A stretch of 64,000 nucleotides of DNA from Minisyncoccota bacterium (GTDB taxonomy: Bacteria; Patescibacteriota; Minisyncoccia; Phycocordibacterales; JABMNX01): positions 462,277-526,276 of the forward strand of contig OZ244961.1 of assembly GCA_965222715.1 (NCBI GenBank), read 5' to 3'. The notes under the pieces were generated by a model, which saw nothing but the letters and a program-made list of their open reading frames with translations, was not told the DNA's origin and made no database searches. Made by a program: the position numbers and the translations under genes. Shown piece after piece: positions 34,035 to 60,020 of the stretch. Numbering within the stretch: the first letter of the stretch is position 1; every line of letters begins with the position of its first letter.

Positions 34035-34108
34035 GTGCGGATGCCAAGACTCGAACTTGGGACCTCGTCATTATCAGTGACGCGCTCTAACCACCTGAGC
34101 TACACCCG
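34035..34108 (-). tRNA. tRNA-Ile (anticodon GAT)
   Basis: GCGGGTGTAGCTCAGGTGGTTAGAGCGCGTCACTGATAATGACGAGGTCCCAAGTTCGAGTCTTGGCATCCGCA folds as a canonical cloverleaf. CCA is not encoded. Confidence 0.85.
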
Positions 34109-34496
34109 CAAAGTACAGCACATAGTAGCAAAATGAGTCTATAATCTCAACGCCTAGCAGATAACTTAGTGAGTACTTGAAGAATCTTGCAGTATTTGCT
34201 ACCCTCCCTAATGGAATAACCCTAACCTAATTGGAGGCTTTTCGTGTGTCAACGATATAGTGGAAGAAACCATATCCCGCAAGATCAAGGTACGTCGCGT
34301 GAAAACGGAGGTGGCTGCTCCGTTGCCGGCAAGGAAAATAAGTGCCAAGGCAAAAAGAGACTGCCTCGGAAGAGAAAGCGGGACCAAGCATCGAGACCGA
34401 GGAGCGGCTCGATTCTTCAGGCACATTGGGCATGAATACAACAACCGCGCAGATCAGTGATCTGCGCGGTTTCTCGTTACAGCTATCACGGATAGA

Positions 34497-34535
34497 AATA
34501 AAAAACGCCAAAGGTACCTTTGGCGTTTTTTTACG
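34497..34535. terminator. A-run / CGCCAAAGGTACCTTTGGCG hairpin / T-run (bidirectional-terminator-like) inside the 16S-to-tRNA-Ile region
   Basis: Perfect 20-nt palindrome flanked by A7 and T7. Confidence 0.4.
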
Positions 34536-34749
34536 GCTCTGTAGAGCCATTTTTATTAATATACTTTCTTTTGTTCCGTTCAATCTCCAAGTAACGCACT
34601 TCTTGGTTAGCGAGTGTAGCCCCGATATGAAATCGGGACTCCGACAGAACCGTCGGAGATAAGAGTACAACACTATTGCTCTTTCCATGCTCGTACGAGG
34701 CATAGAAGATCGACCGGTTAAGTTGTATACCGTAGTACACAACGTCTCC

Positions 34750-36212
<1,463 letters not shown>

Positions 36213-45774: not shown

Positions 45775-45888
45775 TAAAGCTGGCATCGACCTACTTTCCC
45801 CAACATAGAGTATCATCGGCGCAGAAGGGCTTAACTTCCGTGTTCGGAATGAGAACGGGTGTACCCCCTTCGCTTAAATACCAGCTTT
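45775..45888 (-). rRNA. 5S rRNA
   Basis: Plus strand GGCGCAGAAGGGCTTAACTTCCGTGTTCGGAATGAGAACGGGTGTACC is the reverse complement of the conserved 5S core (CCGAACACGGAAGUUAAGCCC...). Ends are approximate. Confidence 0.55.
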
Positions 45889-46048
45889 AAAGGTGCGAAA
45901 AAATGTAAGAATATAAGCAGCGTTCAGATTTCCTAATAAGAGACAAACGACGAATTAGTACTCCTTGGCTAAACACATTACTGTGCGTACACCGAGAGCC
46001 TATCACCTAATCATCTCTTAGGGGTCTATGATTTCTTATCTTGAGGTT

Positions 46049-46081
<33 letters not shown>

Positions 46082-46225
46082 GTTCCCGACATAGCTACTC
46101 GGCAGTGCTCCTGGCGGAACAGCCGATACACCAGAGGTCAGTTCATTCCGGTCCTCTCGTACTAGGAACAAATCCTCTCAAAAATCGACGCCTACAGCAG
46201 ATTAAGACCAACCTGTCTCACGCAT

Positions 46226-46558
46226 GTTCTCATACATTACTGTATGCATTGGACTGTAGCTTTAACTGACACACCATTACAGTGCACAGATAACTGACGT
46301 TCAGTCTCTACGGGCTGAAAATTAATTTTCATTCCCTCGGTATTGTCCTTTGGAAGAGGATTCTACCGATATTAGTCAGCTTGTTCCCGATGTAATATCG
46401 GGACCGCCGTGATTGGATTGCTTAATTCCCAACCCTTTATTAAAGGGTTGGGATCCCGATTGTTACATCGGGACTTATTTCATAGACGAAAAGAATCGAT
46501 TTGTGTCGTTAGAGTGAGCGCAGACTGTGTAGCATTCCATTCAAAGAATCAAATACTA
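46226..46558 (-). other. ORF-less intron-like insertion (~330 nt) in 23S domain V
   Basis: The 23S blocks GAGCTGGGTT.AGA.CGT and CGTGAGACAG are adjacent in E. coli near position 2585. Here they are separated by ~330 nt with no rRNA counterpart. No ORF over 60 aa spans the whole insert. Confidence 0.5.
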
Positions 46559-46694
46559 CACGGTCTGAACCCAGCTCGCGTACCTTTTTAATTGACGAAC
46601 AGTCAAACCCTTGGGACCTTCTCCAGCCCCAGGATAAGGTGAGCCGACATCGAGGTGCCGAACATTGCCGTCGATATGGACTCTTGGGCAATAC

Positions 46695-46728
<34 letters not shown>

Positions 46729-47210
46729 AATCTCCAGTGCCGTCTAAAGGCAACTGTCGGTTCACTATGCTCCGCTTTCGCGCCTGCTCGAGATGTACCT
46801 CTTGCAGTCAAGCCCTCTTTTGCCATTACACTATCGGCACGGTTTCCATTCGCGCCTAGAGGACCTTAATAGACTCCTCCGTTACTCTTTAGGAGGAGAG
46901 CGCCCCACTCAAACTACCCACCAGATACTGTCTCTCGACGTTTTTTCCGTCGAGGTTAGAGAATGCAAAATAAAAGAGTGGTATTTCACTGACGACTCCA
47001 CTACCCCCAAAAGGGTAGCTTCAAAGTCTCCCACCTATCCTACGCAGTTATTTCACACCCCCAATATCAAGCTGTAGTAAAGCTCCCGGGGTCTTTTCGT
47101 CTAGCTGCAGGTAACCGGCATCTTCACCGGTATTGCATTTTCACCGAGCTCTTCCTCGAGACAGTGCCCCAGTCGTTACACCATTCGTGCACGTCTAAAA
47201 TTACTAGACT

Positions 47211-47257
<47 letters not shown>

Positions 47258-48078
47258 CAGGGCTTACACAGTCCAGCATATCTCTAAAAGAAATATACCC
47301 CCCGTGCTTAACCTTCTGGCATTGGTCAGGCGTCACCCCCTATACATCCTCTTACGAGTTCGCAGGGAGCTGTGTTTTTGGTAAACAGTCGCCAGGGCTC
47401 TTTAGCTGCGGCCTACGCAGCCAATAGAGGATTCGATATTGTACATATCGAACACAACACCTATATTGTCTCAATTATTTTCTTCTCAGTTTGAACTCCT
47501 CTATTGGCTGCACAGGCAGACCTTATTCCGAAGTTACGGTCGCTGTTTTGCCGAGTTCCTTGAGGAAGACTCACTCGTTCGCCTTGGTCTACTCGACCTG
47601 ATCACCTGTGTTGGTTTGCGGTACGGTTTTACGAATACTGAAGCTTAGAGGCTTTTCTTGGAAGCGTGCTCCTCTGAATTTGCTTTGGCGAACCGCCACA
47701 TTTCCGCTCTTCTTGGAGTTAGTGTTGCCCGGACTTCCCTAAGCAACCTCCTCAAAGCACGGACGCAAATCCGATAATGCGCTCAGAGTACAACACTCCG
47801 TCCCCTCGTCGCATATTCGTAAAGTCATGGAATATTGACCATGTGTCCATCGTCTCCCCCCTTCGGGATCGACTTAGGCCCGACTAACCCTTCGCTGATC
47901 TACATCGCGAAGGAAACCTTGATCTTTCGGCGGGCAGGAATCTCACCTGCCTTGCGGTTACTCGTGCCAACATTCTCACTTCCATACGCTCCACCATGGG
48001 TTATCCCTTTGGCTTCATCGCAGAATGGAACGCTCTCCTACCGCTTATGAACTTCATTGAGGACCTAAACGAGCGTTT

Positions 48079-48155
48079 AGGAAAATCTTGGTTGCCGCCG
48101 GGGAGATTCGAACTCCCGACCTCGTCCTCACGAAAGACGCGCTCTACCACTGAGC
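48079..48155 (-). tRNA. tRNA-like element (Thr-like, anticodon CGT) embedded in the 23S intervening sequence; imperfect acceptor stem
   Basis: GCCGTTCGTAGCTCAGTGGTAGAGCGCGTCTTTCGTGAGGACGAGGTCGGGAGTTCGAATCTCCCCGGCGGCAACCA. Canonical D-arm, anticodon arm (loop TTCGTGA) and T-arm. The acceptor has a mismatch and an extra nt. Confidence 0.4.
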
Positions 48156-48185
48156 TACGAACGGCATTTTATCCAAGATTGTGTT

Positions 48186-48261
48186 TGGCTGAGGTGGCAG
48201 GGGTCGAACCTGCAACCTCTCGCGTTTTAAGCGAGTGCTCTACCATCTGAGCTTCACCCCA
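48186..48261 (-). tRNA. tRNA-like element (Phe-like, anticodon AAA) embedded in the 23S intervening sequence
   Basis: TGGGGTGAAGCTCAGATGGTAGAGCACTCGCTTAAAACGCGAGAGGTTGCAGGTTCGACCCCTGCCACCTCAGCCA. Full cloverleaf with encoded CCA. Anticodon loop TTAAAAC gives A34-A35-A36, which is unusual. Confidence 0.4.
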
Positions 48262-49096
48262 TTCACCAAACAACAAAAAGAACTATGGAAGGCTTGATAC
48301 AATGACCCAAACCAACCACACGATAATCAAGGAAGTTCCCACTCCCCCAATGATAGTATTTCGGTTTAGTGCCATAGCACACCTCCTATTTTCCTCAATG
48401 AAATTCACAAGCCCCCAGTTTCGGTATCATACTTAGCCCCGATCATTTGCGGCGCGACATCTCTGAATGAGTGAGCTGTTACGCTATCTTTAAAGGATGG
48501 CTGCCTCTAAGCCAACCTCCTCATTGTCTGAGAAATCTCACCTCCTTAAGTGCACTGAGTATGAATTTTGGGACCTTAACTTGGGATCTGGGCTGTTTCC
48601 CTTTTGACCAGTGGAGCTTAGCCCCCACAGTCTAACTGCCGTACTGTAACTGTTGGTATTCGGAGTTTGATAGGAGTGACGAGGTTTCCCCCTATTCACA
48701 CCTTCCAGTGCTCTACCCCCAACAGGATCATACGACGCTAACCCTAAAGCTATTTCGGAGAGAACCAGCTATTACTCGGTTCGATTAGCTTTTCACTGCG
48801 TACCACAGGTCATCCGAATGCGTTGAACGACATTTCGGTTCGGGCCTCCATCTGTGTTTCCACAAACTTCACCCTGCCCATGGTAAGCTCACCGAGCTTC
48901 GGGTCGTATGCACACTACACTTATTTCGCGCTATTCACACTCGGTTTCCCTGTGACTCCACCCGAAAAGGGCTTAGCCTGCAATATACATACACTCGTTG
49001 GCTCATTCTTCAATAGGCACGCGGTCATGGCGCAAGCGCCACTCCCACTGCTTGTAAGCGTGTAGTTTCAGGTCTATTTCACTGTCCTCACCGGAC

Positions 49097-49135
<39 letters not shown>

Positions 49136-49861
49136 ATCTGAAAAAGTATTTAGCCTTACCAGTTAGTGCTGGCAGATTCACTCAAGCTATTCGTGTCTTG
49201 AGCTACTCAAGAACAACAACAAAAGAGTTGTAGAAGTTTTCACATACGGGACTGTTACCCTCTGGGGTGCTTCTTCCCAAAAGCTTCTGTTAACTTTACA
49301 ATTTGTAACTCTTCTTGTTTTAAAAACAAACGTTGTTGCCTTACAACCCCCGATACCACCTCCGTCACCTGACCATACAGATGGCAGAGGTGAAATCAGG
49401 TTTGGGCTACTCCCCGTTCGCTCGCCGCTACTACGGGAATTCCTATTGGTCTCTTTTCCTCCAGGTACTGAGATGTTTCACTTCCCTGGGTGCGCTCCTT
49501 TGCGTCAAGCACAAAGGTAACTACCTAACGTAGTTGGGTTTCCCCATTCGGAAATCTCCGGGTCAAAGGTTGCTAGTCACCTCGCCGAAGCTTATCGCAG
49601 ACATGCCACGCCCTTCATCGCCTTTTTCAGTCTAGGCATCCACCACACGCTCTTCAGATCTCCTATTAGGAAATCTAAAAACCGCTTATAAACTTACATT
49701 TTGTTTATGTCCCATCTTTCTTTTTGTTTAAAGAAAAAGATGGGACTTACCTGCATGAACCTCCTCTCTCCGAAAGTGTTGAAAAGAGGTTCAAGCTATT
49801 ATGACGTTGTCAAAGAGTCGCGTAATTCCCTATGAGCTTTTATATATCACTAGTCATCAAA

Positions 49862-54936: not shown

Positions 54937-55245
54937 ATGTCATTACACCACACAGCTCAGCGAGGACTGGAATTTCTCGCCCAGCACAAGGGTGCTGATC
55001 TCTTTCTTGAGTACCTCAAGAAGAGAAATGTGATTCGACTGTACGCAGGTTCGTGTTCTCTCACGGTGCCAGCGTTTATCAACATCTGCACCCTCTACGG
55101 TATCGCGATACAGGTGCGTGACGACAAGGAGAAGTTACATGGGCTCAACCCAGAACTCCCTTCCCTCCTGTTCATCGTACCGGATCACATCCAGATACTG
55201 ATCGAGAACGCTTCGATCAAAGACGGCGAAGTTGTGTTCTCCTGA
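54937..55245 (+). CDS. Hypothetical protein
   Basis: Canonical AGGAGG 6 nt upstream of the ATG at 54937. The ORF-track start at 54916 would include the SD. Followed by terminator CCCCCCGAGCATTCGCTCGGGGG plus T at 55261-55290. Confidence 0.4.
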   Translation: MSLHHTAQRGLEFLAQHKGADLFLEYLKKRNVIRLYAGSCSLTVPAFINICTLYGIAIQVRDDKEKLHGLNPELPSLLFIVPDHIQILIENASIKDGEVVFS

Positions 55246-55260
55246 ACCGACCGCCAGACG

Positions 55261-55290
55261 CCCCCCGAGCATTCGCTCGGGGGTTTATGT
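55261..55290 (+). terminator. Rho-independent terminator
   Basis: CCCCCGAGC ATTCG CTCGGGGG TTTATGTATTT. Confidence 0.55.
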
Positions 55291-55351
55291 ATTTGTACAC
55301 AAATAAAAAAACCGCATGATGCGGATTTCATATTAAAGAACAAGACCAGTA

Positions 55352-55428
55352 TGGTCGGAATGAGTGGATTTAAACCACTGACCTCTGCCTCCCGAGGGCA
55401 GCGCTCTATCAGGCTGAGCTACACTCCG
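55352..55428 (-). tRNA. tRNA-Pro (anticodon CGG), CCA encoded
   Basis: CGGAGTGTAGCTCAGCCTGATAGAGCGCTGCCCTCGGGAGGCAGAGGTCAGTGGTTTAAATCCACTCATTCCGACCA. Clean cloverleaf. Downstream hairpin terminator on the minus strand at 55307-55330. Confidence 0.8.
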
Positions 55429-55992
55429 TTTCCATACAGTGTCGTGACTCCCTCGACAATCCTTCTAAGAATCCAGATTGCCGAGGGGAGCCTGCTAAAG
55501 GTGTACGTCAGGTCGACGATGAGGCGCTAGATGAGCGACCCGCCGTCACCCGTGTTCGCGACGCCGAGGATCTGGAGCGCGTTGATGCTCGGACCGTAGC
55601 GGGCGCCGGTGATGCGATCGAAGTTCGCGGCCGTATGCATGCTCTGACCCTGGTTCGTCGGGTCGTGCATGGAGATCATCGTCCGTTTCATGAGACGTGT
55701 CCTTTCCTGTCGTGGTTTCCGATGTGGACTCACTTGGTCCATTACTAATGCTACCTTACTTCTCTAGGGTGTCAATAGATATCCACAGGAGAAACGCAGG
55801 AGGAAAATAGTATAAAAAGAAAAGCCTGAGCCGGGGTCCCGCGCGGAATTCGAAAGCTTCGGGGAAAGCATCCGACACATCTGGGGAAGATGGATCCGCG
55901 CGGGACGAGAGCCGGCCAGGCTCTGCGAGCGTCATGGACTGGGTAGAGCCCACACGCCACCACTATAGTACTACACCACCATATACTATGCA

Positions 55993-58551
55993 CTATATTC
56001 CTCCTCCAGGGTTAGGTGGTGGCGTTGCGCTATTGAGTGCCTTTGGAGTTCCATAGATTTGGTTTCCGTCACTATCAGTGCCATTTATCTTTGTCGTATT
56101 ATTTGAACCCCAATTTGATGCATCTTCCCCACTATTCCCAGCGCGAACTCGTTCCATTGAGATAGGGGTTGTGGTTGCCTCACCTGAACACCACCCACTA
56201 CATGTAGATACATCTGGTGTAGCGTCAAGTGTACTTGTCGCAGTACCACCCAGTGATTGAACCAAATATAGTTTCTCTCCATCATTTGAAAGACCTGATC
56301 CGCTACCCACACCACTAAATACAGTTGTAAGATCTTCTGATTCACTGGTCGTACTTCCGTTACTTCGCTCAATTAAGTAATATGCACCCGAAGCAACTGA
56401 TCCAGAAAGTTTTATATATGGAACAAGGTCAGTCGCATAGAGTACCAGGTGCGAAAGATCGATCGTGTTGCTTGATTGATTATAAAGCTCTATCCACTCA
56501 TCCATACTACTTGCTTGTGTTCCTGCCCAAGCAACCTCATTTATAACCACAGTTGATGTGGCGACTGATACACTTTGTGAAGAAGAGGTTGCTATGTTCC
56601 CTACTAAATCATAGGCAACTACAGCAATATTTGCAGTTGTATTATTTGAAACCGTGATTGAAGTACTTTTTGCTGTTGTTGTTGCAACAACCACGTTGTC
56701 TTTAGCAACACCATAATATTCAACGTCAGTGTTAGTTGAATCCCATTCAACAAAAATTTCCTCACTACCAGAAAGACATGCATCAGATCGCAACGAGTAG
56801 CTACACGCCAATACACTCATACTTGAAAACGTTGGTAAAGTGGTATCAACATACACAGATACACTAACTTGGTCAGAGACTGTATTTGTTCCTGTGTCAG
56901 TTACTTTAAAAGATACAGTGGTCGTACCTTCTGAAAAACTATCGAGAGTAATTTCCCAATCACCATTACTATCTACTGATGTTGTTGCGTTTGAAAAATC
57001 CTGAGAAAGAACTAAGTTTGATTGACTGATTCCTGAGAAGGTAATAGTTGTAGTTCCCAGACGAGTATTGTTTGTAGGAGATGTAATAGTAGGAGCATCT
57101 GGTTCTGTTGATTCTTGAGAGCTTTCTTCTGCTTCACGCGCTTCTTGTAGAGCTTTTGATGAGCCGCCGTCACCACCAAAACCTATAAATGGAGTTAGGA
57201 CAGGAATTGGATCAGGTATTGATGAGTGAAATTTCTCCTCAACTCCAATAATTTCTTCTATCTCTAGTGCATTTTCTTTGGAGACAGACTCTTTCTCTTC
57301 AATGCTTGGCCTCACATCAACTGTCTCTGTATTCTCAACCTCTTCTTCACCTTCTTCTATTACCTGAGCCTCAGAGTTAGTATTCAGAACACTAGCAAAA
57401 GCATCAACAACTGAGGCAACGTTCTGTTGTGGTGTCACGTCACCTTTTGTATAGGAAGGAGCAAACTGCTTGGGCAAAAATTTACTCAAGAAACTTTTAT
57501 TTTTATTATAAAGCGCTAAGGTTTGTTTTTCTTTCTCAACTTCATCAAAGAATAATTTAATCACTCCAGCACCATGTAACACCGCCTGTTTTGAGAGGAT
57601 ATTCCAGTAATCAGCCATGATTTTTTCTCCTCCATCCTTACTATCTATTGAGTATTTCTTATTTATATTTTGAGTTACATTATCTTTATGTTCCTGTAAT
57701 TCAAAAACATGATAGGATTTACCATCAAACATACCCATACCGAATTTTTGTACTCTACCACCTGAAAGTACACCAACTCCTATTAACGAGTATTGAGGTA
57801 CCGGGTATTTATTTTCTGATACTGACGACGTTCCTGCTTCTGGAAATGGTAGTGTATCTTTGCTAAAAAAGTGTGTGTTCGTAAAGAATGCAAGATTAAA
57901 GAAATATTCATTAAGCGTGTTGTAATAGACTGGCATCTTTCGGTCACGAAGCAACTTCTCTGCGATAACAAGATTTTGAGGAGTAAAAGCGCTCGTCCAC
58001 GCCTCATATGGCGAACCAAAATCAAGTGCGGGTGGGTGGGGATCATCTCGAACGTGCGGCGGTACTGTCAGATCTTGAATCAAATGTAGTATTTGACCAA
58101 GTCCACGGAGAGCTCGTTTCTTGTCGCCATGTACATACTCATATACAGAACGTTCCCAAGAATAATCACTTGATGCACTATAGAGTGGTGCTGAAACACC
58201 AGCTACAAAGTTTCCAGAATATACCGCTTGCTGTTTGGGGCTTTGCGCCCAAGTCATTGCTGAGGTATATCCCCTAAGCCCTCGATCATAGACGGGGTCA
58301 TGAAAGTGATTGAGCACACGCACTGCCGGACTATCCTCAAGAGACGAACCGGACATAAGCATTTGCTTTTCTTCTTCAGAAAATCTAGTTTGCGGATAGA
58401 AGCGATTATACAATTCTACGGTTTCACTTGTAAGTGCGGGGTGTGTTGTTTCAGCAGAGTATGCGTAAATAGTATATACAGGTAGGAAAAGCGCACTAAG
58501 TATAAGTGCGGATATAAGTAATATGTGGATTAAAATTCGTCCAGCTTCCAT
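55993..58551 (-). CDS. Large secreted surface protein: N-terminal Zn-dependent PLC/P1-nuclease-like region, central Ig-like (Big) repeats, C-terminal lamin tail domain
   Basis: Signal/TM MEAGRILIHILLISALILSALFL. C-terminal VVINEVAWAGTQASSMDEWIELYNQSSNTIDLSHLVLY LTD signature. T/S-rich beta repeats. The N-terminal His/Asp-rich block (LNHFHDP...ILHLIQDLTVPPHVRDDPHPP) is only weakly PLC-like. Confidence 0.5.
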   Translation of the reverse strand: MEAGRILIHILLISALILSALFLPVYTIYAYSAETTHPALTSETVELYNRFYPQTRFSEEEKQMLMSGSSLEDSPAVRVLNHFHDPVYDRGLRGYTSAMTWAQSPKQQAVYSGNFVAGVSAPLYSASSDYSWERSVYEYVHGDKKRALRGLGQILHLIQDLTVPPHVRDDPHPPALDFGSPYEAWTSAFTPQNLVIAEKLLRDRKMPVYYNTLNEYFFNLAFFTNTHFFSKDTLPFPEAGTSSVSENKYPVPQYSLIGVGVLSGGRVQKFGMGMFDGKSYHVFELQEHKDNVTQNINKKYSIDSKDGGEKIMADYWNILSKQAVLHGAGVIKLFFDEVEKEKQTLALYNKNKSFLSKFLPKQFAPSYTKGDVTPQQNVASVVDAFASVLNTNSEAQVIEEGEEEVENTETVDVRPSIEEKESVSKENALEIEEIIGVEEKFHSSIPDPIPVLTPFIGFGGDGGSSKALQEAREAEESSQESTEPDAPTITSPTNNTRLGTTTITFSGISQSNLVLSQDFSNATTSVDSNGDWEITLDSFSEGTTTVSFKVTDTGTNTVSDQVSVSVYVDTTLPTFSSMSVLACSYSLRSDACLSGSEEIFVEWDSTNTDVEYYGVAKDNVVVATTTAKSTSITVSNNTTANIAVVAYDLVGNIATSSSQSVSVATSTVVINEVAWAGTQASSMDEWIELYNQSSNTIDLSHLVLYATDLVPYIKLSGSVASGAYYLIERSNGSTTSESEDLTTVFSGVGSGSGLSNDGEKLYLVQSLGGTATSTLDATPDVSTCSGWCSGEATTTPISMERVRAGNSGEDASNWGSNNTTKINGTDSDGNQIYGTPKALNSATPPPNPGGGI

Positions 58552-59108: not shown

Positions 59109-59206
59109 ATAAAAACTGTTAATAACTCCTCATTTTAAGACTGTTTAATATCTCAGCTATAGCTGAGATATTAAACAGTGCTTTTTACACCTTTTACCAG
59201 AAAAAA

Positions 59207-59770
59207 TCAGATGGAAAATGTTCTTCTTAGCTCTGTATCTTTACCAATATTCTTTGAAACAATAACTCTACACTCTTCATCACTTATATTGAAATAATCT
59301 TTCACGAGCTCAATTTCCTTCTTGCAGTTGAATGGATACACCCATACACTTTTTTGCATTTGAATAAATCCGGAGCGCTTAAGTACTCTACGTAAAGCGT
59401 CTCTCTTTATCTTTTGACCATCAGTTATATCAAAAATAACTACGTACCACACACCATTCCATCTTTTTTGTTTTGATTTATTTTGTAATCTTGATTGAAT
59501 AAAATAAATATTTGCTTTCTCTTTACCTTTTTCAGAAAGTGCAACAAGGATCTTATCTGCTTTCTTTTGAGTTTTAATATATCCCCTACCCCGTAAGTAG
59601 TTAAAAGCATTTCTTGTTTTTTCTACATTATTTTTATCTTTTACCTTAAGATAATGAGCAATGAAAATTGCAGGGGTAAGCAATACTGGGTTAGTGAGGG
59701 CAATAGCAATTCCGCCACTTACAAGTAAATCGATCATTACTTCTTTTGAAGTACTATTTTCAACCCTCAT
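59207..59770 (-). CDS. Membrane-anchored protein with Cas2/PaaX-C-like ferredoxin-fold domain
   Basis: N-terminal TM helices. C-terminal WYVVIFDITDGQKIKRDALRRVLKRSGFIQMQKSVWVYPF resembles the Cas2 / PaaX C-terminal fold (YDV...RR...QNSVF pattern). No CRISPR array nearby. Confidence 0.35.
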   Translation of the reverse strand: MRVENSTSKEVMIDLLVSGGIAIALTNPVLLTPAIFIAHYLKVKDKNNVEKTRNAFNYLRGRGYIKTQKKADKILVALSEKGKEKANIYFIQSRLQNKSKQKRWNGVWYVVIFDITDGQKIKRDALRRVLKRSGFIQMQKSVWVYPFNCKKEIELVKDYFNISDEECRVIVSKNIGKDTELRRTFSI

Positions 59771-60020
59771 ACTCTATAATATATGCGCGATAGCTGAGAT
59801 TCTCAACAGTTCGGTGTGATTTGTTTTTTATGAGTTATCAAAACCTTTACTAACAACTTGCGTCGTTTTGGCAAGCAGTTTGAGAGGTGGTCTCAGGGAA
59901 TTCAGAAGTACTCACAAAGAAACCGGTTATTGCAAAACTAAGGAGTACAATACCAATAAAACCGAGGAGAAATTTAAAAAAGGTATTATTGAATACTGGT
60001 TTCATACTTACTCAGTCAAA

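Follow-up and report, generated by a model that had tools for sequence, protein, structure and literature searches.

We analysed a 64,000-nt stretch of a Minisyncoccota bacterium (GenBank assembly GCA_965222715.1, contig OZ244961.1, positions 462,277 to 526,276 of the forward strand), referred to here as the window, and in it a GC-rich island of about 0.5 kb at 55440-55990 that adjoins the gene of a proline transfer RNA (tRNA), tRNA-Pro(CGG). On balance, we favour the reading that the island consists of two distinct small functional units on the minus strand with an AT-rich promoter between them. Unit 1 is a branched hairpin which is probably the intrinsic terminator of the upstream gene for a lamin-tail-domain (LTD) protein, and which is also a candidate 3'-end-derived small RNA. 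Unit 2 is a 54-codon open reading frame (ORF) that is probably co-transcribed with tRNA-Pro. The overall anatomy of both units is well supported, and we report as observations the composition, the statistics of fold and codon periodicity, the calls of promoter, terminator and tRNA, the counterparts found at the same position in relatives, and the lack of vector or mobile-element signatures. The features are listed below (GC3, G+C content of third codon positions; SD, Shine-Dalgarno).

55993..58551, minus strand: LTD gene, coding for an 852-aa lamin-tail-domain surface-type protein (ORF list; Pfam LTD, 1.7e-09)
55798..56005, minus strand: larger predicted closed fold of 208 nt (inverted repeat; -102 kcal/mol, z -7.2)
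55814..55924, minus strand: three-way-junction hairpin with U-tract (fold, inverted repeat)
55748..55775, minus strand: sigma-70-type promoter-like sequence TTGACA-16-TAGCAT in the AT-rich spacer (10/12 consensus matches)
55700..55708, minus strand: SD-like AGGAAAGGA, 8 nt ahead of the small ORF ATG
55527..55691, minus strand: small ORF of 54 codons plus TAG (sequence, codon statistics)
55446..55492, minus strand: 17-bp hairpin without U-tract, between the ORF stop and tRNA-Pro (inverted repeat, fold)
55352..55428, minus strand: tRNA-Pro(CGG) with encoded CCA (ARAGORN, Rfam)
55305..55324, minus strand: intrinsic terminator, CCGCATCATGCGG followed by TTTTTTT (terminator scan)
54937..55245, plus strand: 102-aa orphan gene, convergent on tRNA-Pro (ORF list; GC3 0.61-0.63)

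The G+C content of the island is 0.563 as compared with 0.407 for the whole window, and reaches 0.627 and 0.661 in the segments 55500-55700 and 55830-55950, in agreement with the roughly 60% given for both in a preliminary description of this DNA. Within the window, 200-nt segments with a G+C content of at least 0.56 were found in this island alone, the 16S gene excepted. The same description had set the flanking DNA at about 40%, which is true of the window as a whole but not of the immediate flanks (~0.47-0.53). A sliding profile resolved the island into two peaks with a dip between them, the spacer at 55700-55825 having a G+C content of 0.42. Since tRNA-Pro(CGG) was placed by ARAGORN and Rfam on the minus strand at 55352-55428, the island lies on the 5' (upstream) side of the tRNA, as had been described. 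The dense palindromes were also confirmed: 18 palindromic hexamers fall in 55440-55990, as compared with 9.6±2.9 in 1000 dinucleotide shuffles (p ~0.006) and with 8.4±3.3 in segments of 551 nt elsewhere in the window. Among them are the overlapping EcoRI, BstBI and HindIII sites (GAATTC at 55846, TTCGAA at 55849 and AAGCTT at 55854) and a nearby BamHI site (GGATCC at 55892). Six of the 18 lie within the 71-nt hairpin core, where 1.5 are expected, and all four restriction sites together with both CGCGCG palindromes are located inside hairpin stems. We attribute the palindromes to the self-complementary stems and the GC-rich coding sequence, of which they are by-products, and the G+C content of the island to the G:C-rich RNA stems of unit 1 and the extreme preference of unit 2 for G or C as the third base of its codons.

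The LTD gene ends with its stop codon at 55993-55995, and the base of the hairpin, which is ~100 nt long, starts 70 nt past it. The outer stem is formed by AGCCUGGCCGG and CCGGCUCAGGCU, the inner stem is a perfect 12 bp (GUCCCGCGCGGA/UCCGCGCGGGAC), and the junction bears two small hairpins with the loops UCCCC and CCCC in both the minimum-free-energy and the centroid folds. The U-tract UUUUCUUUUU follows directly 3' of the hairpin at 55825-55814. The fold of the minus strand has an energy of -60.2 kcal/mol (z -6.1), equalled by none of 200 shuffles, whereas the plus strand gave a z of only -2.9. In addition, a 14-nt inverted repeat (13/14 pairs) joins the last LTD codons and stop (56005-55992) with 55811-55798, just past the U-tract, and the larger predicted fold encloses the three-way junction and two further hairpins. 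The hairpin thus has the attributes of an intrinsic terminator: a G:C-rich stem-loop with the U-tract next to it, 3' of a gene and on the transcribed strand. It was missed by a simple terminator scanner, the loop limit of which is 3-8 nt. With cmscan and all 4227 Rfam families, no match to the hairpin was observed, whether the whole window was screened at gathering score or 55200-56200 at E<=10; in the latter region Rfam matched only tRNA, and RNase P, transfer-messenger RNA, signal recognition particle RNA, 6S, riboswitches, ROOL/GOLLD and RsaE are not supported. On this view, unit 1 (55924->55814) would end transcription of the LTD gene, and would probably persist as a stable structured 3'-end RNA exposing two UUCCCC loops.

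The minus-strand ORF of 54 aa that had been described before was recovered at 55691->55527 with the same translation, MKRTMISMHDPTNQGQSMHTAANFDRITGARYGPSINALQILGVANTGDGGSLI; it carries no annotation in the source record. The G+C contents of its three codon positions are 0.54, 0.48 and 0.89, and this GC3 is the highest of the 391 ORFs (>=25 aa) in the window, where the long ORFs have a mean GC3 of 0.30 and a range of 0.21-0.43 (102-aa neighbour and spurious ribosomal RNA (rRNA) gene frames excepted). Three-base periodicity was significant by permutation (p=3e-5), and sliding windows placed it solely inside the ORF. It runs from the ATG to the stop, and the start codon forms a composition boundary. 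Folding showed no excess of RNA structure in this region (z -0.7), which rules it out as a structured RNA, and the 3-base signal indicates that it is a coding sequence. Periodicity confined to the frame is accompanied by a start, a stop and initiation signals. Based on these features, the ORF would be translated into a soluble 54-aa peptide. We found in it no signal peptide and no hydrophobic segment, and nearby no modifying enzyme; of the small secreted or modified peptide that had been suggested the ORF is present, but the secretion and modification signals are not. Searches of Pfam, NCBIfam, PHROGs and PADLOC gave no matches, nor did tblastn against plasmids or a search of IMG/VR. The AlphaFold model made from the single sequence was unusable (predicted local distance difference test score, pLDDT, 58; predicted template modelling score, pTM, 0.16).

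The promoter-like site in the spacer is followed by the SD-like motif, the ORF, the 17-bp hairpin, tRNA-Pro and the U-tract terminator, all on one strand. A promoter scan found no promoter-like site in the interval from the small ORF to tRNA-Pro and, there being no terminator in it either, a single ORF-hairpin-tRNA transcript can be inferred. It would start at its own promoter (55775->55748) as a leadered RNA, would carry the 54-codon ORF, the 17-bp hairpin and tRNA-Pro(CGG), and would end at 55324->55305. A cut by RNase P at the 5' end of the tRNA would then free a small mRNA with a protective 3' hairpin, from which the soluble peptide would be translated. As regards the tRNA itself, the D-loop AGCCUGAUA lacks the customary GG and the T-loop UUUAAAU has U in place of the usual C56, unlike the other three tRNAs of the window, which have canonical loops. 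The odd loops may reflect an A19:U56-type covariation or a different origin.

The best homologues of the LTD protein have 40-55% identity and are annotated as Candidatus Paceibacterota or Parcubacteria; the window therefore belongs to a genome of the candidate phyla radiation (CPR, Patescibacteria) without a close sequenced relative. Each of the proteins neighbouring the island has one record only in the public protein collection. The 3' tail of the 16S rRNA (34751-34765, minus strand) reads GGAUCAAUUCCAAU as compared with the consensus GGAUCACCUCCUUU, and thus has AUUCC in place of the anti-SD CCUCC. An SD-like motif was found for 2 of the 46 long genes and not for the other 44, and in most long genes the ATG is preceded at a distance of a few bases by a -10-like box (TATACT, TACAAT), a pattern which suggests that host mRNAs are predominantly leaderless. 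The small ORF had been credited with a good ribosome-binding site. The motif AGGAAAGGA is indeed present 8 nt ahead of the ATG, but its pairing with the host 16S tail is at most weak (-5.5 kcal/mol), yet ranks first among 48 start regions. Canonical SDs are rare clade-wide and occur mostly within the variable interval from the LTD gene to the DUF1360 gene.

In order to compare this locus with others, related loci (L001, L002 and so on) were collected from LTD homologues and from a Joint Genome Institute (JGI) metagenome scan with a DUF1360 alignment, and the window itself was added. The gene order of the window is TPR, PaaX_M, a 192-aa gene, LTD, the gap, DUF1360, L10 and L12 (rplJ, rplL). The order LTD-gap-DUF1360-L10-L12 is kept in L001/L002, L004 and L008, and LTD-gap-DUF1360 in L006/L007; the upstream TPR and PaaX_M genes are also in conserved order in the window and L001. 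The content of the LTD-to-DUF1360 interval differs in each relative, with four genes in L001 and one opposite-strand gene each in L004, L008 and L007, and these opposite-strand genes are related neither among themselves nor to the 102-aa gene of the window. At the LTD-gap position, no tRNA was found in 16 distinct related loci (near-identical contig copies counted once), several of which still bear similar GC-rich small units. Two distant relatives without the LTD gene, L017 and L018, have a tRNA-Ser upstream of DUF1360, and L030 and L031 have no intergenic region past the LTD gene.

A counterpart of the hairpin was observed at the same site in L027, the LTD protein of which, with 54% identity, is among the closest to that of the window. 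When both strands of 572 kb were searched with the descriptor CCCnGCG...CGCnGGG plus T-run, only the window hairpin and L027 2224-2316 matched, as compared with 0-1 matches in shuffled controls. The L027 element is 93 nt long, starts 74 nt past the LTD stop, is very C-rich inside, and ends in TTTTCTTTTTAT as the window hairpin does; it has none of the restriction sites of the window. The corresponding place in L001 is occupied by a promoter-like site, a pair of hairpins whose loops are C-rich (CAUCCCCCCUC, CUCUUCCCCUCAAG) and a terminator. Short terminator-ended units, many with C-rich loops, also crowd the post-LTD intergenic stretch in L027 (2150-3330) and L007 (3140-3860), where 8 and 9 terminator-like sites were counted and 1.8 and 1.1 are expected, respectively.

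Small ORFs of comparable design were found in two other genomes. That of L007 (the same in L006 and L016) is MKHEKTGISPFATASPTEWKQIISRALDNTERIDGGSAI, with GAGGAG-N8-ATG ahead of it, a GC3 of 0.77 as compared with a local 0.5, and periodicity at p=0.006; the three copies are identical in DNA and hence offer no substitution pattern. That of L005 is MKKILMTGFSPHQNISEGAREAQEINEGAGGFAS, with AGGAG-N8-ATG ahead, a GC3 of 0.76 and p=0.04. The C-termini read ...GDGGSLI* in the window, ...IDGGSAI* in L007 and ...GAGGFAS* in L005, and near the N-terminus L007 has TGISPF and L005 TGFSPH. It is probable from these likenesses, though not proven, that the three ORFs are fast-evolving relatives. A 148-aa gene of L001, considered as a longer relative of the small ORF, showed no similarity, and a 47-aa candidate ORF in L027 had no coding periodicity. 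When C-rich hairpin candidates of four loci were aligned with MAFFT, the result was not structurally meaningful. A loose stem descriptor gave 8 matches in IMG/VR, all in phage contigs of 59-70% G+C and none with a U-tract, which we regard as chance. Patterns of L10 peptides and a degenerate tRNA-Pro pattern gave no match in the genome contig collection, in which the source genome is absent, and exact queries with proteins of the window gave no record in the contig index. In L003 (11246-11404), an SD-led (GAGGAGG) 52-aa ORF, MKRVCSYCKKVYGEKEPYEDKSETHGACDKCYEIELKK..., lies directly past the LTD gene; its CxxC...CxxC spacing suggests a zinc ribbon, that is, a different small gene in the same slot.

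Several points weigh against the reading of two functional units. The promoter call is a single consensus match, and 3 such sites occur in the scanned region as compared with 1.6 in shuffles. The window hairpin has no convincing promoter of its own and may be nothing more than a terminator. An open frame of 54 codons is expected by chance at 63% G+C, and the antisense frame across the small ORF is open too. A word-indexed search of 5.8 billion proteins returned nothing, and phmmer against 1.8 billion cluster representatives returned only two weak matches, which were judged spurious, being to internally repetitive proteins. The kinship of the small ORFs is argued from position, composition and end motifs of 5-6 residues, and phmmer, even at E<=50, links none of those in the window, L007 and L005. 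Moreover, since the anti-SD is altered and 44 of 46 long genes are without an SD, an SD-led, leadered ORF is atypical of this host. It could be argued from some of these points that the ORF is not translated, and that 55440-55700 is a decaying GC-rich gene fragment or a structured leader of the tRNA-Pro precursor; the lack of annotation, the orphan status and the uninformative AlphaFold model would fit such a view, as would the chance open frame and the rarity of SD-led initiation. We consider this unlikely. The periodicity extends from the ATG to the stop with a composition edge at the start codon, the promoter, the SD-like motif with its 8-nt spacing, the ATG and the stop are all present, and the region lacks the excess structure that a structured leader calls for. 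Two other genomes also have complete analogues with the same SD spacing and GC3 periodicity.

A regulatory role of the hairpin RNA was also considered, in which it would act in trans or in cis, its UUCCCC loops pairing with G-rich ribosome-binding regions after the model of RsaE/RoxS in Firmicutes, with the adjacent small ORF as the first candidate target. The exposed UCCCC and CCCC loops, and the C-runs in the loops of the L027 and L001 counterparts, are in keeping with this proposal, and the junction interior pairs with the SD-to-AUG region of the small ORF at -26.7 kcal/mol (rank 1/48, p ~0.01-0.03 vs shuffles). Nevertheless, L007 has no comparable complementarity (p=0.39), the pairing nucleotides are mostly within stems of the native fold, and the duplex energies are inflated by the GC-rich start region of the small ORF. 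A regulator that masks SDs would have few targets in a host nearly without SD-dependent genes, and an Rfam match to RsaE or another small RNA family is absent. We therefore find such a role quite doubtful, and the pairing, seen in the window and absent in L007, was not adopted. A wider conjecture, which we regard as decidedly improbable, is that this Paceibacterota clade uses the gap past the LTD gene as a dedicated nursery of miniature transcription units, with a conserved C-rich-loop RNA and a GC3-rich micro-protein family as an unrecognised regulatory module. The UUCC(CC) loops, which resemble the altered anti-SD AUUCC, could then rival the ribosomes in binding those few SD-like mRNAs that have a leader, and the micro-proteins would be fast-evolving and SD-led, with an N-terminal MK... 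and a C-terminal ...GG-S/F-x-I/S, in a lineage otherwise translating leaderless mRNAs.

The origin of the island is a separate question, and a foreign source of part of it would be compatible with the anatomy of two units. It is possible that the small ORF is foreign; a fuller version, in which the small ORF came as cargo from a GC-richer, SD-using donor, accompanied probably by the 102-aa gene and perhaps by tRNA-Pro(CGG), and settled between the LTD terminator and DUF1360, is in our view plausible enough to be kept in mind, though we would not call it probable. The 102-aa gene has the canonical SD AAGGAGG, in a host that has AUUCC for CCUCC in its 16S tail and SDs in 2/46 genes, and a GC-rich terminator at 55262-55283; it has no family match, its sole database match being itself, and it likely belongs to the same variable cargo. 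The GC3 values (0.89 for the small ORF and 0.61-0.63 for the 102-aa gene, as compared with a mean of 0.30) speak for import, as does the content of the interval, which is different in each relative, with mutually unrelated opposite-strand genes. SD-led, GC3-elevated genes also gather in this interval in L001, L003 and L007. Further, tRNA-Pro(CGG) reads CCG, the sole Pro codon of the small ORF, it stands apart from the other three tRNAs of this DNA in its D- and T-loops, and none of the relatives has a tRNA at the locus. Against import, no donor-like homologue was found in the protein and DNA collections searched, and the surroundings of the segment showed neither an integrase or transposase nor any att or terminal repeat. 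In addition, GC3-rich ORFs with similar end motifs are at the same locus in genomes where the LTD proteins are only ~50% identical, and this argues for a long residence with the bias maintained, and not for a recent import. A horizontally acquired peptide gene had been suggested earlier; the GC3 outlier in a variable interval would be in keeping with it.

Two other proposals on the origin did not hold. The overlap of EcoRI, BstBI and HindIII sites with a BamHI site within 60 nt, and the approximately 2-fold enrichment of palindromic hexamers, had raised the possibility of cloning-vector or contaminant DNA, or of a chimeric join. We reject contamination and consider this whole account extremely improbable, as the island had no match by DNA or protein among 72,556 plasmids (PLSDB) and 50,697 phages (GenBank; blastn word size 11). 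The sites are in paired stems, the hairpin stands where a terminator is needed, and its counterpart in the independent assembly L027 is free of the sites; a native-looking AT-rich promoter splits the GC-rich pieces, and syntenic genes flank them. The second proposal, a remnant at a tRNA integration hotspot, is not supported in that form, since the island lies 5' of the tRNA. A single copy of the 24-nt 3' part of tRNA-Pro occurs in the window at <=3 mismatches, without an att-type repeat, and neither an integrase nor a recombinase domain came up in Pfam scans of predicted proteins in ~36.5-45.4 kb and 50.4-64 kb. Relatives without the tRNA have similar units. On the side of the tRNA, the repeats and the proteins scanned, we reject a classical tRNA-integrase island.

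Further features of the neighbourhood may be recorded here. A Y1-type (IS200/IS605-like) transposase gene is present next to the LTD cluster in several diverged relatives, L003 (6815-7507), L004 (4508-5179), L028 (1-664) and L031 (3369-4055), and absent from the window; this recurrent gene could be domesticated, or could be a source of local rearrangement. The PaaX_M/Cas2-like gene of the window (59207-59770) is flanked by 40-nt copies, 78% identical, at 59140-59179 and 59771-59810, the first of which is a perfect palindrome. This gene shares the strand of the LTD gene in the window but not in L001/L002, where it has the other orientation. An inversion of the segment is one possibility; alternatively, the palindromes may be no more than bidirectional terminators. 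Linkage of the rRNA genes is lacking, the 16S gene and its downstream tRNA-Ile (34035-36210) being ~10 kb from 23S-5S (45778-49666), with ~8 protein genes between them, including FtsW/RodA and glycosyltransferases. The 23S gene (45934-49666) spans 3733 nt as compared with 2925 nt in the model, and its helix-45 region contains an insertion of ~330 nt (within 48043-48413, minus strand) which is closed by a 20-bp stem. This insertion holds an AGGAGG-led hydrophobic ORF of 30 codons (MALNRNTIIGGVGTSLIIVWLVWVIVSSLP, 48375->48283) and two tRNAs with encoded CCA, one with the anticodon AAA ('Phe', 48261->48186) and the other tRNA-Thr(CGU) (48166->48089). To our knowledge, tRNA genes within a 23S intervening sequence are unusual.

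In our preferred reading, a feature that looks like a polylinker or a foreign insert would be native to a CPR genome, a piece of regulatory and coding micro-anatomy that ought not to be removed as contamination. With it, an unannotated small ORF and a candidate small RNA are added to a group about whose micro-proteins and small RNAs very little is known. The extreme GC3 bias recurs in the counterparts of two other genomes, within AT-biased genomes; if it is maintained by selection, it would be informative on mRNA stability or decoding in reduced genomes. Probably of wider interest than the island itself are the altered anti-SD, the absence of SDs from nearly all genes, and the 23S insertion with its tRNAs and its own small ORF.

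With respect to known systems, the locus resembles tRNA-associated genomic islands, which are integrase-mediated with attB in the 3' half of the tRNA, in that an atypical segment adjoins a tRNA gene. It differs from them in that the segment is 5' of the tRNA, and in that there is no integrase, 3'-end repeat or phage or plasmid similarity; relatives without a tRNA here still have comparable units. RsaE/RoxS are described (PMC6158497, PMC5419742, PMC8216469) as small RNAs of Firmicutes with C-rich motifs which pair with G-rich ribosome-binding regions. The window hairpin is like them in its size of ~100 nt, the unpaired C-runs in its loops and its end in an intrinsic terminator. It is unlike them in having no Rfam match at E<=10, in belonging to another phylum with an altered anti-SD and almost no SD-led genes, and in that no target was supported across genomes (L007, p=0.39). 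Unit 1 stands closer to intrinsic terminators and small RNAs derived from 3' untranslated regions, with which it shares the G:C-rich stem and U-tract, the position 70 nt past a stop on the coding strand, and a stability far above that of shuffles. Its stem is nonetheless ~100 nt long and branched, with a three-way junction and two C-rich loops, whereas the other terminators of the region have 5-9 bp; an extra 14-bp long-range pairing would enclose it, and its 3' end is a predicted one. For unit 2, the E. coli thrU-tyrU-glyT-thrT-tufB operon is an example of tRNAs and an mRNA transcribed together. The window differs from it in that the ORF is ahead of the tRNA and has 54 codons only, and in that co-transcription is predicted; it is similar in that a coding frame and a tRNA are on one strand from a single promoter-like site to a single terminator. 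The features of this island are of known kinds, unit 1 being a terminator or 3'-end RNA and unit 2 a small ORF probably co-transcribed with a tRNA, in unannotated, lineage-specific instances.

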